Part shown: positions 28,503 to 59,720 of the stretch, in pieces | Position numbering within the stretch: position 1 is the first letter of the stretch | How the letters are laid out: each line of letters opens with the position of its first letter | Origin: Leucoraja ocellata | Taxonomy: Eukaryota | NCBI GenBank assembly: GCA_036785375.1 | Contig: JAWMAR010003932.1 | Location: 1 to 64,000 of the forward strand | Direction of reading: 5' to 3' | DNA: 64,000 nucleotides | The notes under the pieces: model-generated | Told to the model about the DNA's origin: nothing | The model's database searches: none | The model's input: the letters and a program-made list of their open reading frames with translations, nothing else | Translations under genes and position numbers: made by a program

Positions 28503-29389
28503 TTAATGAACAATCTTAAGACATGATGTGAAAGGATACTTGATTGCATTCTTCAGTTGGTCTCTGACCTTAGACTGAGTCACCATATAAATAAACGTGT
28601 TCGTGCACGAACTCAGAACTTTAAGCATGTCCCCGGCTGCATTTGCCATTGTCCTAGGATGAGCCCAGTTTGGGACATAGTGTGTGTTGGCAATATCCGA
28701 AGAAATGTTGACCATCACCTCCGTCAGCCACAGGAGGATGAAACTGCCGGACACACAGAAGAGTAAAATAATGGATTTCTTTCGACTCTCCATTTCCGCG
28801 TCCTCCTGTTTCTCGCCACTGACGTGAGCGCGGAGCTTCCTGCGGGCTCGGCTCGCCACTACGATCGACCTGACAGTCAGAATATTAAGCAACAGAATAA
28901 CGAAAAACGGAAGCAGAGGGGTTAAAATGTTGTGAATCCAGGAGAAAGCAATCCACCCGGGGTTGGAAAAATATTCCGGCTTTTCCATGCATCCAACCTG
29001 CAGGCCTATATAATAAGAATAAAATGCAAAATAGTAGGGGATATTCCGTATTAAACTCACAACGTACACTGTTGCTATCGCCACCCTGGCGACTCTAACC
29101 GTGCAGTATCTGGTCTTAAAGCCCTGGCAACAAATGGCCACAAAACGATCAAATGTAAACGCGACAGTTAACCAGACTGAGCAGTCCAGGGTCACATAGG
29201 CCATCACTTGTTGTACGGTGCATGCTATAGTGTGAGTGGACCGAAAAATCACAGTGTAAAGATAAAATATCGCCGTGGTCCAGAAGACGGCCAATAGATC
29301 TGCTGCCGCCATCGCCACCATATAGTGGGTGATGCATCGAGACAGTCCGCACTTTCCTCGTCCGAGAACGACGATCGCCGCTAAATTGC
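28503..29389 (-). CDS. GPCR paralog 1 exon 2 (end of TM1 to C-terminus)
   Basis: ORF 28503..29321 extends in frame to the acceptor at 29391-29390; 7TM motifs. Confidence 0.92.
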
Positions 29390-30963
29390 CTGTGAGGAAA
29401 TGAACACAGACAGTCTTTGAATCTGGTCATCAAGTACAAGGTGTTCTCAATGTTTGTGATCGTGGTGCAGGCGCGACTCCTACTGTTGTCCTGCGGTATG
29501 GCAGCCACCCGAGCCACATTCCCACTCACCTTGAGATCCAAAATAGATCGCGACCGTCCGCTCAATTAGAATTAAATACAAAGTAGGTGCTATAATACCA
29601 GGAGAAGGGCTCAACCAAGAATACCAAGCACGCAACCAAAGTACTATCTAAACTGATGAAACCAACTTATGCTGTGGGCAATATGCAATAATCTGCTACC
29701 TATATATTAACAAGCGCATAAGAAAACCGGTCGTGTAGATGCAAGTATATCAATGGTTTAATCAAGTGGGCACCTGCCTTCACTGGTGTTTCGTCGATGA
29801 AGACCCACGATACTTCGGGAAGGCTCAACAATCGGTTCTATGAGCAGGTAAACCCCCTCATATCTGCTCTCACAGGCCATGCTACCAACATCTCCTACTC
29901 AAAGGAAGCCGATGATTCAATCATTCCAACAAATGCGAAAACACTCGCATACGATATTCTCTAACCCTACCCCATTATTAAGCTCGTAACGCCACAATTA
30001 TCAGCACGGCATAAAACTGGGATACACTTACAGATAATACACTCATAAATAAATGCATTGTGAATGTGGAGTTGTGAAAAGTGTTCAATTGTCATGTGTC
30101 TCGAATACGGAATGATTAAATGCTTACTTGCAGTCGCAAACGGGCTTAAATTAATACACACTGATTATGTGTAATTGACAAATGCGTGAATCCATTAAAT
30201 ACCACAGAACGGATAGGAAAACCCCGAGGTCCTGAGTGTAACCAGCGGCCGTCCATAGAAGGTGGGGTTGCGTGATGTGGGGTGAGATGGACTAGCCGTG
30301 TCCAGTAGAGCCCCGGTACTGACGACACCTTTGTGTGTGGTTGCTTCTGTCTCCGTGTATTCCGGCAGCAACACACGATGGGCCCCGTGTTGCTGACATC
30401 CCCATCCGGAATTACTACACACTTCGGCAACCGTCCTCACAAATGTCCGGGTAATCGGCAAACAAAGGATTCTACTTCTGGCTTTTCAGTGGCATTAAAC
30501 ATGAGGATTTGTGTTGACGGAGGAAGCGCTTTATACAAAACATCAGCTCGGAGGCCATGGAGGACCGCGCACTGCGACACTTTCTGAGCCACTCCGAGTC
30601 TTTCATCTCCCCTTGCAATCGGCGACCATCATCATTTCCCCGCAAGCATCAAGCACCGACTTACTCTAAATGACATCTACTAACACCGCACACAATATGC
30701 AACTTCTTGTAGTAAACTCAACTTCTTGGAGTAAACTGCTAAGCAGTTGTGTTTGCGTGGCGGATACTTTAGATGGACAAACCCCGGTCAAAACTTCACT
30801 CTCCTGACCAGAAGGAACAGTTGCAAAATTCAACCCCTCAACGGTGTTAAATGGCAAGAAGATAAAACAACTTACTGAGCAATCCAATTACTGTAATGAT
30901 GTAATCAAAGTAAGTCTGGACTAGATAAAGTGTATATACCCGCTCAAAGACACTAACGCCCAT
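28503..30963 (-). CDS. Class A GPCR, GPR139/GPR142-like family, paralog 1; two exons (30963-30876, 29389-28503), about 324 aa, intact
   Basis: Exon 1 MGVSVFERVYTLYLVQTYFDYIITVIGLL with donor A|gtaagt; acceptor ttcctcacag; exon 2 has NLAAIVVLGRGKCGLS, MAAADL (TM2), AFTFDRFVAIC (TM3), SFILLW (TM6), SSCTNTFIY (TM7). Confidence 0.9.
30876..30963 (-). CDS. GPCR paralog 1 exon 1 (N-terminus and TM1)
   Basis: 88-nt coding exon, phase 1, same length as and homologous to exon 1 of paralog 2. Confidence 0.8.
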
Positions 30964-31057
30964 CCTTGATGTCGGCGGGACATAAAGATGTCGCCTGTAC
31001 TGACAATGGTCCCAGGTAGATCGGCACTGCCAGTAGCTCAAGGTCCCCGCTCGCGTT

Positions 31058-31065
31058 TATTTATA
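31058..31065 (-). promoter_or_regulatory. TATA box of GPCR paralog 1
   Basis: TATAAATA about 95 nt upstream of ATG, conserved in paralog 2 (42671-42678). Confidence 0.6.
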
Positions 31066-57160: not shown

Positions 57161-57695
57161 ACCCAGCCTTCATAGTAACCACAGCTAGTTTGAAGAAGCA
57201 TATGCAATATGTTCATCGAAGTACGTTCCAAATGTTAATGTATTTAGAGTTTGGTAAATGGTGACAATGTCTGTGCCGCATCTCTTCCCTGTGCACGTAA
57301 AGGTCAGACGCTCAATTCAACAGCAGTTCAAGAGATCGCTATGAATTATCAGATCCAGAACTACACTACCTCATCCAACAAAGTAACACCCTTTCATAGT
57401 TTTGCAAGCGACACTATAAGTAATTGCACTTGTCAAATGTGATCCTCGTCCTGCATTAAAACTATTCAATCTTCTATATCCCTGTATAAAATCTAAGTTT
57501 GTACTATTACAGTCGGAGAAGAGTCATAAGAAATCTAAAAATAATAATTGTTTGCAACATCCCTTGAGGTGCCTAATTCACTGTACAATGATGCAATGAG
57601 CGAAAGTTGGTGACGGGTCATTTGTTCAGTGGACTGTGTCTGAGGTGACTGAAGTGACGGTCGCACTAATTGTCATAGTCGACGTGCCCTGATTG

Positions 57696-57702
57696 TATAA
57701 TA
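57696..57702 (+). promoter_or_regulatory. Putative TATA box of GPCR paralog 3
   Basis: TATAATA about 75 nt upstream of ATG. Confidence 0.4.
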
Positions 57703-57773
57703 GGGCTCGAAACCAAACACCGGTAGATGAAAGGAGTTAGCGCATTATACCGATTCGCAGCTTTGGATGGAAA

Positions 57774-59720
57774 ATGGGATATTCAGCAATTTACTACATA
57801 GCGAGCATATACTATCCTGTTCTTGTCGCGTTTGGAATACCGGGTAAGAAATAGAAGCTGACTATTTTTGATGCTTTTCGTTTTCTTGTTAACCCCCGGC
57901 GTGTGCAAAACGACGACCATTATGTCCATCTCAGGTGTTTTTCGAATCATTTTCAGGTTTCAAGCTTATGGAGTCTTTTAAAATCTGATTTTCTCGCACT
58001 GTTTACTCTTCGATTTAGATATGTTGTCCGTTGTAAACATAAACTGAGCGGCTCTAGTGTTTTTGTGGCCAACATTTGATCCCGTTGTAATTTCAAAAAT
58101 CATTCCTGATGCATTTTTTACGTTCATACAAATTGTAGGGTCAATAGTCAGAACACGCTGATTTCTGTCGGGAAGTAGGTATTCCTGAACGTGGTTGTTG
58201 CAGTCTTCAGACTCCTGTACCTCCTACCTGAAGGTAGCAGGGAGATGAGTGTGAGGCCAGGATGGTGTGGGTCTTTGATGATACTGCCAGCCATTTTGAC
58301 TAATTCGACAAGCTGGATGCAGGAAATGTGTTTATATGAAATAGGCCATTATTAGTCCCAAATTATTTGAAGTGTTAACAGAGGCCGATGCATATTCGTG
58401 GCCCTTTCATTGCAATCGTCAGCTATCTACCCTTTGGGTAATAATGTTTCATTAATTTCATCATATTACATTAAGTAATAAGTAATACAGCTTTTATTAA
58501 TTGTATTTATTCTGTTGTATCTCAACTCGTACACTTAACAACCGATGTAACCGAGCTATTAGTGACGTTGGTATGTCTTAACAGCTTTTTTTCCCAACGT
58601 GTGAGAATTTTAATTTGAAAAAGTTTATTATCGTTCGGAATCGTGTTGTATTTGGCAGAAACCTATTGCGTCAGGTGTTGGTTGCAATCAGCTCCAGGAT
58701 GGAAATCGATTTCACCACGGTAGGGACTTGTTTCCCCAGGTACACGAAACGAGCCGAGGAGATTGACTACGTTTGCAACGAGGATTCCTTTATCAATATT
58801 GTTCCTCTTGTTTCCATTCAGTTAACTTAATGGCAATCGTGATCCTCTCGCGTGGAAAATGCGGTCTTTCCAAGTGCATCACACGTTACCTGGTGGGAAT
58901 GGCGGCGGCAGATCTCATGGTGGTCATCGTCGTTGCATTATTGGAGCAGACAAATATGATCCATAAATATTCCCGTTTATTGCACATCACTCCAATTTGT
59001 GCTCTGACAACTGTTTTGAGGGTTGCAACTACGGGCTGTTCCGTTTGGCTTACGGTGGCTTTCACCTTCGATCGCTTCATCGCAATATGCTGCCAACAGT
59101 TGCAGATAAGGTATTGCAGCGAAAGGACTGCGACGGTGGTTATAGTAGTCGTGACAATATTGTGCTGTGCCAGATGTATCCCGGTTTACTTTGCAATAGA
59201 GCCTTACGCCATAATTGATCACATGCCATGGGGCTGCATCTTAATAGCAGGATACTACACTTCTTCCATGTGGAAAGCGTTCGAGTTAATTGACAGTATC
59301 TTGACACCGTTATTACCAATCGCGTTAATTCTACTGTTTAATTGGTTGACAGTTAGACACATTATTGCGGCAATTAGAGTTCGCCAAAGTCTGCGGAACA
59401 ACAGCGAGAATCAGAAGGATCCAGAAGTGGAAAACCGGAGAAAGTCAATGGTTTTGTTGTTTGCTCTATCAGCCAATTTCATATTATTGTGGATGCCTTA
59501 TGTGGTATCTTCTGTGAACTGGCAAATGCAAAATTATTTTTACACAGACTGATATATGAGTAACCCAACATATATCCTGCAGGAACTTGGGTATATGTTT
59601 AAATTCCTCAGCACCTGCACCAACACATGTATCTATATACTGTCACAGAGGAAAATCAGAGAGGAGCTGAAGAATGGTGTGAAATTCGTGCTTACACTGA
59701 ATGGTCATTGTTGTGAATAG
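57774..59720 (+). pseudogene. GPR139-like GPCR paralog 3; exons 57774-57843 and 58822-59720; premature TGA at 59550-59552 before TM7
   Basis: Exon 1 MGYSAIYYIASIYYPVLVAFGIP with G|gtaaga; acceptor tttccattcag; AFTFDRFIAIC; after the TGA the same frame continues YMSNPTYILQELGYMFKFLSTCTNTCIYILSQRKIREELKNG to TAG at 59718-59720. Confidence 0.85.

Follow-up and report, generated by a model that had tools for sequence, protein, structure and literature searches.

A very large elasmobranch family of two-exon class A receptors, separate from GPR139, with a diversified pocket and a likely chemosensory role

The 64,000-nucleotide stretch of Leucoraja ocellata DNA analysed here (contig JAWMAR010003932.1 of assembly GCA_036785375.1, positions 1 to 64,000; hereafter the window) contains three genes for G-protein-coupled receptors (GPCRs) of class A, P1, P2 and P3, in which the initial annotation saw GPR139-like paralogs. 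Are these genes copies of GPR139 or members of something larger, and what might their products detect? We find that they belong to an elasmobranch family of class A GPCRs with two exons, which is very large and arranged in tandem clusters. It forms a lineage of its own, and positive selection on the pocket and outer loops of its largest subfamily can safely be read from the codon patterns. On balance, the family is likely to be a chemosensory repertoire.

Three two-exon genes, one of them broken

Six-frame translation and a family hidden Markov model (HMM) place the three paralogs where they had been annotated, and the HMM finds no fourth family copy in the unmasked window. Each gene has two exons, the first of which was located by tblastn with the N-termini of relatives:

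30876..30963, minus strand: P1 exon 1, N-terminus and first half of transmembrane helix 1 (TM1), 29 codons plus 1 nt; tblastn match, donor GTAAGT at phase 1
29390..30875, minus strand: P1 phase-1 intron, with GT..AG ends
28503..29389, minus strand: P1 exon 2, second half of TM1 to the stop (Pfam 7tm_1, E 1e-22); spliced frame open, 324 amino acids
28986..29006, minus strand: patch GLQVGCM in extracellular loop 2 (ECL2) of P1, a likely conversion tract, found base for base in the P2-type gene L008 and nearly so in L014
42489..42576, minus strand: P2 exon 1, 29 codons plus 1 nt; tblastn match and donor
41131..42488, minus strand: P2 phase-1 intron, with GT-AG ends; contains a high-copy repeat near 41960-42300
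40241..41130, minus strand: P2 exon 2; spliced frame open, 325 amino acids; exon-2 product predicted as seven helices plus helix 8 (AlphaFold predicted local distance difference test score 88)
57774..57843, plus strand: P3 exon 1, 23 codons plus 1 nt; tblastn match and donor
57844..58821, plus strand: P3 phase-1 intron, with GT-AG ends
58822..59720, plus strand: P3 exon 2, broken by an internal stop; a pseudogene copy from a subfamily other than that of P1 and P2, with 47-52% identity to them
59550..59552, plus strand: premature in-frame TGA of P3, in ECL3; also in two other assembled copies

The structural description in the initial annotation holds. All three introns have GT-AG ends, are of phase 1 and lie just before N1.50 in TM1; exons 1 of 29, 29 and 23 codons leave very short N-termini; TM7 reads NTFIY in P1 and P2 and NTCIY in P3 instead of NPxxY; and every peptide segment quoted there is present in the sequence. 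No N-terminal glycosylation sequon occurs in P1, P2 or P3. P1 and P2 are 79% identical. The Pfam cut-off for 7tm_1 is exceeded by all three genes, the only other match being a sub-threshold one to Srx, and the P2 exon-2 model gives TM-scores of about 0.7 to class A structures.

Only two of the three paralogs are intact, however: P1 and P2 are open, whereas the TGA of P3 had been overlooked. As this codon precedes TM7, P3 is unable to make that helix. Among 11 near-identical P3 copies (a twelfth locus gave no probe match), the codon reads TGA in 3 and AGA in 8, so P3 is a recent pseudogene copy or allele; a one-off sequencing error is rejected, since three assembled copies carry the stop.

Family size in the genome and in elasmobranchs

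The assembly comprises 3.44 Gb in 5,847 contigs. There are 1,550 matches in it to a narrow TM3 motif (control 0) and 2,387 to a broader family motif (control 2), the latter catching 119 of 124 intact loci picked at the protein level. An exon-1 donor pattern adds 1,120 matches (control 4), some of which are not family exons. Of the first 100 narrow-motif loci listed, 98 were fetched, all on large contigs; every one matches the family HMM, 82 have an intact exon 2 and 16 are broken (84% intact). Among 157 intact loci that had 3.5 kb of upstream sequence, 107 yielded an exon 1. Dividing 2,387 by 1.4-2 and taking 84% gives an estimate of about 1,000-1,400 intact loci. The 187 intact genes collapse to 138, 110, 80 and 52 clusters at 99, 98, 95 and 90% nucleotide identity; given these many near-twins, distinct receptor types number several hundred. 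The proposed expansion is supported by copy number, and birth-and-death evolution by the broken loci and by P3 itself.

The assembly partly double-counts: it holds two inverted copies of GPR139 that are 98% alike, some 10 of 34 class C loci appear by eye to be second copies, and near-identical P1-P2-P3 cassettes are present on several contigs. Two single-copy genes, L255 and L262, occur once each. The same assembly yields at least 34 class C transmembrane exons and at least 1 olfactory receptor (OR) match at E<=1e-20.

Outside this genome, the best named match to the window proteins is from Leucoraja erinacea (95%). Among the best 120 of 1,611 database matches, 119 are named elasmobranch proteins from 16 species, nearly all labelled 'probable' or 'putative GPR139'; by hand count they include 45 from Heptranchias and 31 from Heterodontus, as distinct clusters at 90%. 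The annotation of two Heptranchias database proteins, P0010 and P0011, joins a partial family member to a full one, which is likely an artefact of gene modelling in tandem arrays.

A lineage separate from GPR139

A true GPR139 is present separately in the same genome, and family members are only 23-26% identical to it; catshark and mouse GPR139, by comparison, share 81% (PMC13200729 supplement). A careful 37-row tree unites the family in a single clade (100/100) with a long stem branch (1.31), which joins the two single-copy types L255 and L262 (97/95) and then amphioxus proteins (93/88), with GPR139 and GPR142 outside (100/99); a quick 68-row tree agrees. Forced grouping of the family with GPR139/142 is narrowly rejected (approximately unbiased (AU) test, p=0.043). 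Against invertebrate-like outgroups, the GPR139/GPR142/GPR210-like superclade including the family has 99/97 support. The assignment as GPR139-like stands at the level of this superclade and fails below it, the family being a separate lineage; an expanded GPR139 is rejected by tree, AU test and the separate true ortholog. Shark members and those of this genome interleave in trees, with subfamilies common to both, suggesting that the expansion began before the shark/batoid split.

Two features of the window genes proved less distinctive than they seem. The intron acceptor AG lies two bases before the Asn codon in 180 of 187 intact genes, but this genome's own GPR139 also has the phase-1 acceptor before N1.50, together with TM7 NFFLY. 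The missing P7.50 (NTxIY) and the TM1 intron were therefore rejected as marks of the family. Further likeness to GPR139/GPR142 lies in W6.48 and N5.58, in the family's best PDB sequence match (E 2e-11) and in the database label. The difference lies in the separate clade, a hypervariable pocket, the rarity of P6.50 (3 of 80 genes) and about a thousand copies against one.

L255 (G000:C16:5041988-5042941) and L262 (G000:C72:3448840-3449595) are themselves conserved single-copy orphan GPCRs mislabelled 'probable GPR139'. L255 shares the intron, and most of its orthologs also lack P6.50; both differ from the family in having one match each here, a conserved pocket and 28-30% identity to P1/P2. Orthologs of L255 span sharks, ray-finned fishes, coelacanth, amphibians and reptiles, with no mammal among the 120 matches listed. 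Invariant residues in the pocket (D3.29, Y3.33, Q5.42, R6.51, D7.36) suggest one fixed endogenous ligand. The two types may correspond to the GPR210 subtypes named by Rinne et al. in 2019 (PMC6504862); the passages on GPR210 subtypes in that paper mention no shark.

GPR139 has been described as related to the invertebrate FMRFamide/MIP/sex-peptide-receptor group (PMC12208981). The language-model neighbours of a family homolog are same-family and FMRFamide-receptor-like clusters with a share of PF10324 (Srw), a likeness to that group and to nematode Srw. In trees, by contrast, these receptors fall outside the chordate clade, and the family is an independent expansion. Chemoreceptor expansions of the FMRFamide-receptor group also exist in invertebrates.

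A conserved inner half and a diversified pocket

Residues D2.50, D3.49, R3.50, F6.44, W6.48, N7.49 and Y7.53 are present in 80 of 80 family genes and the TM3-ECL2 cysteines in nearly all (C3.25 in 79, C45.50 in 78), whereas P7.50, like P6.50, is rare (5 of 80). The four ligand residues of GPR139, F3x33, H5x43, W6x48 and N7x38 (PMC5430874), are together kept in 0 of 187 intact genes; P1 and P2 have Y, H, W and D there. Pocket positions were taken from a list in generic class A numbering, fixed before the partition tests and after a first site-model run on the P1/P2 subfamily. Variability in pocket and inner TM is 0.58 and 0.34 in the family (52 paralogs; ratio 1.71) versus 0.26 and 0.32 in the single-copy sister gene (120 orthologs; ratio 0.82).

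The concentration of P1/P2 divergence in ligand-facing segments noted initially is upheld: amino-acid differences fall in 30 of 82 pocket and ECL codons versus 16 of 138 inner-TM and intracellular-loop (ICL) codons (Fisher p=2.5e-5). The outer parts show no excess of synonymous-only differences (3 of 52 versus 23 of 122), and mere homogenisation of the inner half is thereby rejected. Two P2-type genes, L008 and L014, carry the ECL2 patch of P1 over 10-11 consecutive diagnostic sites with differing right ends, a pattern that indicates swapping between paralogs, with gene conversion apparently adding to pocket variety. A test of the pairwise homoplasy index (PHI) type, run on 6 subfamilies with the 45-gene subfamily left out, gave p=0.003 in two, 0.023 in one and no significance in three.

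Site-wise selection was assessed with GY94-type models of our own instead of PAML, using 4-5 beta classes on scaled nucleotide trees and naive posteriors, in nine subfamilies of sequences collapsed at 99%, one further subfamily of 3 sequences being left out. M8 is preferred over M8a in 5 of 9 (twice the log-likelihood difference, 2dL, of 442, 50.6, 20.8, 11.8 and 9.1). The value of 442 belongs to the 45-gene subfamily (omega, the nonsynonymous/synonymous rate ratio, 4.1), where 25 of 29 selected sites lie in pocket or ECL, which make up 85 of 294 codons (p=2e-11); they include 2.61, 2.64, 3.29, 3.32, 3.33, 6.51, 7.32, 7.35, 7.36 and 7.39. The proposed pocket diversification is borne out by this clustering. 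In the P1/P2 subfamily the selected sites are ECL1-49, 3.29, ECL2-128/129/132, 7.32 and 7.36.

Conversion can mimic selection in such tests and was simulated. For the 45-gene subfamily, M2a-M1a is 485 compared with a maximum of 20.5 among 8 simulated nulls that included as many as 120 conversion events, and the signal persists in 4 of 4 segments, each with its own tree. For the P1/P2 subfamily (17 genes), the statistic is 47.5, falling to 34.6 without mosaic genes and 25.4 without ECL2. From these nulls, positive selection on the pocket and outer loops is safe for the 45-gene subfamily and probable for the P1/P2 subfamily. Pooled over 106 genes, omega is 0.77 in the pocket, 0.83 in ECL, 0.59 in other outer TM, 0.27 in inner TM, 0.24 in ICL and 0.52 in helix 8 and tail, in a fit with synonymous rate (dS) somewhat raised in the outer partitions.

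Promoter layout

Family upstream regions have a TATA box with a common element above it, first seen by eye. In the window the putative promoters are:

31060..31093, minus strand: P1, TAATTG (31093-31088) and TATAAA (31065-31060), without an O/E-like match
42673..42706, minus strand: P2, TAATTG (42706-42701) and TATAAA (42678-42673)
57667..57701, plus strand: P3, TAATTG (57667-57672) and TATAAT (57696-57701)

A layout of TATA, homeodomain and O/E sites has been reported for odorant-receptor promoters, with TCCCYNGRGA as the O/E core in mouse (PMC3247239 and its Table 1), and in mouse, OR expression is driven by Lhx2 and Ebf sites that lie side by side (PMC5608512). With at most 1 mismatch, this core occurs in 15 of 30 proximal, 2 of 30 distal and 0 of 27 intronic family sequences (shuffled mean 1.6, maximum 4); CTAATT occurs in 12 of 30 proximal versus 0 distal and 2 intronic. 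A held-out set was drawn from 50 exon-1 matches. Of the 49 recovered, 10 lacked a fitting ATG and 26 were discarded as near-duplicates, leaving 13, of which 2 are probably not family genes. There the core is found in 4 of 13 versus 0 distal and 0 intronic (shuffled 0.77). An O/E-like site with at most 2 mismatches sits at -23..-19 from TATA in 15 of 29 promoters and 6 of 10 held-out ones (null means 0.76 and 0.23). About 60-100 bp above TATA, the forkhead-like word TGTTTGTT(CA) is present in 7 of 30 proximal sequences versus 0, and in 5 of 11 held-out versus 0; P3 has a one-mismatch variant of it at window 57620-57633. A scan of 6-8-mers brought out no NF-kB, ETS or IRF-like word in the promoters. 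By analogy with OR promoters, the layout may serve as a lead toward sensory neurons, not as proof.

A likely chemosensory repertoire

We consider it likely, if by no means certain, that the family is a chemosensory repertoire whose receptors are each tuned to different water-borne peptides or amino-acid-like molecules. Family size, promoter layout and a gap in the known receptors of sharks favour this use. With almost no N-terminus, the receptors would bind ligands in the TM pocket, and since relatives sense peptides and amino acids, small peptides or amino-acid derivatives would be the likeliest class. Through the conserved inner half, every member would signal by way of one and the same G protein. 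The pocket would be retuned by duplication, by point selection at 2.61-2.65, 3.29-3.33, 6.51 and 7.32-7.42, and by ECL2 swaps. Expression would be in sensory cells, most plausibly olfactory neurons, through the homeodomain and EBF-like sites above TATA. More tentatively, and with somewhat less than even confidence, the family may be the principal set of receptors in the noses of sharks and rays, a further vertebrate olfactory family of about a thousand genes co-opted from the GPR139/peptide-receptor lineage.

A long-standing puzzle of the shark nose becomes directly testable with this family: sharks and rays have large olfactory organs and many olfactory neurons, yet cartilaginous fishes have on average 43.8 (20-62) known olfactory receptor genes (PMC10869828). 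In catshark the olfactory neuron monolayer is near-continuous (PMC10116579), and seven probes in that study sum to about 12.6 cells/mm, a sum of our own that would imply a receptor gap.

Several observations weigh against this interpretation. M8 versus M8a is not significant in 3 of 9 subfamilies (-0.1, 2.3, 1.1), with a further one, S4, lacking a usable fit; the P1/P2 statistic is only 1-2 times the largest heavy-conversion null value of 23.7 (18 runs, 17 genes); no pooled partition mean of omega is significantly above 1; and relative dS in the 45-gene subfamily is raised in pocket (1.55) and ECL (1.41) versus 0.74, as from conversion. No promoter has an exact O/E match, P1, P2 and P3 hold only the homeodomain half (TAATTG) at the O/E-like place, and TAATTR is not enriched in held-out promoters (4 versus 4 distal; CTAATT 4 versus 1). 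The promoters also share ancestry, and visual inspection had brought up the motif ahead of the first test. EBF is active in B cells and many neurons too, and large selected GPCR families are also found in immunity and itch (FPR, MRGPR). Seven RNA runs from another species, of unlabelled tissue, contained no read across an exon joint and no more than traces on conserved motifs, which favours neither side. Finally, every olfactory neuron in catshark expresses both Go and TRPC2, in keeping with V2R (PMC10116579).

The family might instead serve immunity or danger sensing, working on leukocytes, mast-like cells or nociceptors in the manner of FPRs and MRGPRs, with microbes or parasites driving its diversification. 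Strong site selection with ECL2 segment exchange, recombination in 3 of 6 subfamilies tested and rapid local duplication all suit it, as do the EBF-like sites, which fit B cells too; C3aR, GPR15 and FPR2, examples of peptide and chemoattractant receptors, are among the fold neighbours, in a search that does not discriminate among class A peptide receptors. We nevertheless regard it as unlikely: no immune-type word stands out in the promoter scan, and to our knowledge immune GPCR expansions comprise tens of genes, not about a thousand. The TATA, homeodomain and O/E-like layout, moreover, resembles the one reported for odorant-receptor promoters (PMC3247239).

A set of internal sensors for nutrients or endocrine peptides, acting in the gut or brain and building on what GPR142 and GPR139 do, seems quite improbable. 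The nearest characterised relatives do sense Trp/Phe (PMC5430874) and peptides (PMC12208981), P1 and P2 keep H5.42 and W6.48, and the forkhead-like word is enriched in proximal promoters. Endogenous-ligand receptors, however, keep their pocket, as the single-copy sister gene does; no intact gene retains all four GPR139 ligand residues; and the true GPR139 exists separately. A mostly neutral origin by repeat-driven segmental duplication and assembly double-counting, with relaxed constraint on outer surfaces, is very improbable and already largely refuted: duplicate loci, repeated cassettes and partition omegas near rather than above 1 speak for it, but L255 and L262 appear once each, the intact genes still form 80 clusters at 95% and 52 at 90%, two shark species contribute 45 and 31 distinct ones among the best 120 matches, and 84% of loci are intact, with omega of about 0.25 in inner TM and ICL and M8 beating M8a.

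A chemosensory repertoire would have clear counterparts. With OR, TAAR, V1R/ORA, T2R and FPR-rs the family shares large clusters, compact genes, a short N-terminus, birth-and-death evolution and pocket selection; its promoter layout resembles that of OR, though the O/E-like site is never exact. Unlike members of the OR, TAAR, V1R, V2R and T2R families, P1-P3 match only 7tm_1 and none of the family-specific Pfam domains, and the family differs from vertebrate chemoreceptors in its one coding intron, its GPR139/FMRFamide-receptor-group ancestry and, in the window genes, the lack of an N-terminal sequon.

This is a new family of a known sort, an expanded sensing GPCR repertoire. We found no description of the expansion in the full-text literature, although one may exist in subscription papers or supplements, and NCBI annotation already shows the genes. 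The available portions of catshark, whale-shark, little-skate and chemoreceptor-survey papers contain none; the part of the PMC13188829 supplement covered has no family match, that of PMC13200729 only the true GPR139, and the whale-shark supplements, as far as available, one orthogroup line, 'GPR142'. Reviews speak of a GPCR paucity in cartilaginous fishes (PMC10869828, PMC8455134). Hidden under the automatic label 'probable GPR139', the family is about 70-fold larger than all class C genes in the assembly and, whatever the tissue, is a large vertebrate sensing repertoire that arose independently. If it were the main olfactory repertoire, the notion of a cartilaginous-fish sense of smell built on about forty genes would be overturned.

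Surroundings of the genes

The two GPR139 loci (L031/L032, G000:C465:704594-754801) are inverted with respect to each other, with a class C gene pair mirrored around them (670379, 786220); from this arrangement, the contig probably joins both haplotypes. A near-identical exon-1-donor-like sequence is dispersed in the assembly (L264, L239 and similar matches on C38, C41, C60, C101, C110 and C114), with no exon 2 within the 9 kb fetched downstream of the L264 copy; it is possibly a repeat with an exon-1 fragment, or a chance match within a repeat.

Within the window, a tandem repeat unit at 11296-11804 (plus strand) has long open frames in all three plus-strand frames and no Pfam match. An element at 49852-55037 (minus strand), which we take to be a DIRS-type retrotransposon, has a tyrosine-recombinase N-terminal domain (Pfam Phage_int_SAM_1) and frames resembling reverse transcriptase/RNase H and gag, and is broken by a reverse transcriptase of the long interspersed nuclear element (LINE) type at 52303-53661. 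Further LINE-type reverse-transcriptase remnants lie between and around the receptors, at 13214-14839 (plus strand), 26180-27988, 46907-48346 (minus strand) and 56188-57105 (minus strand), and are possible substrates for the receptor duplications.

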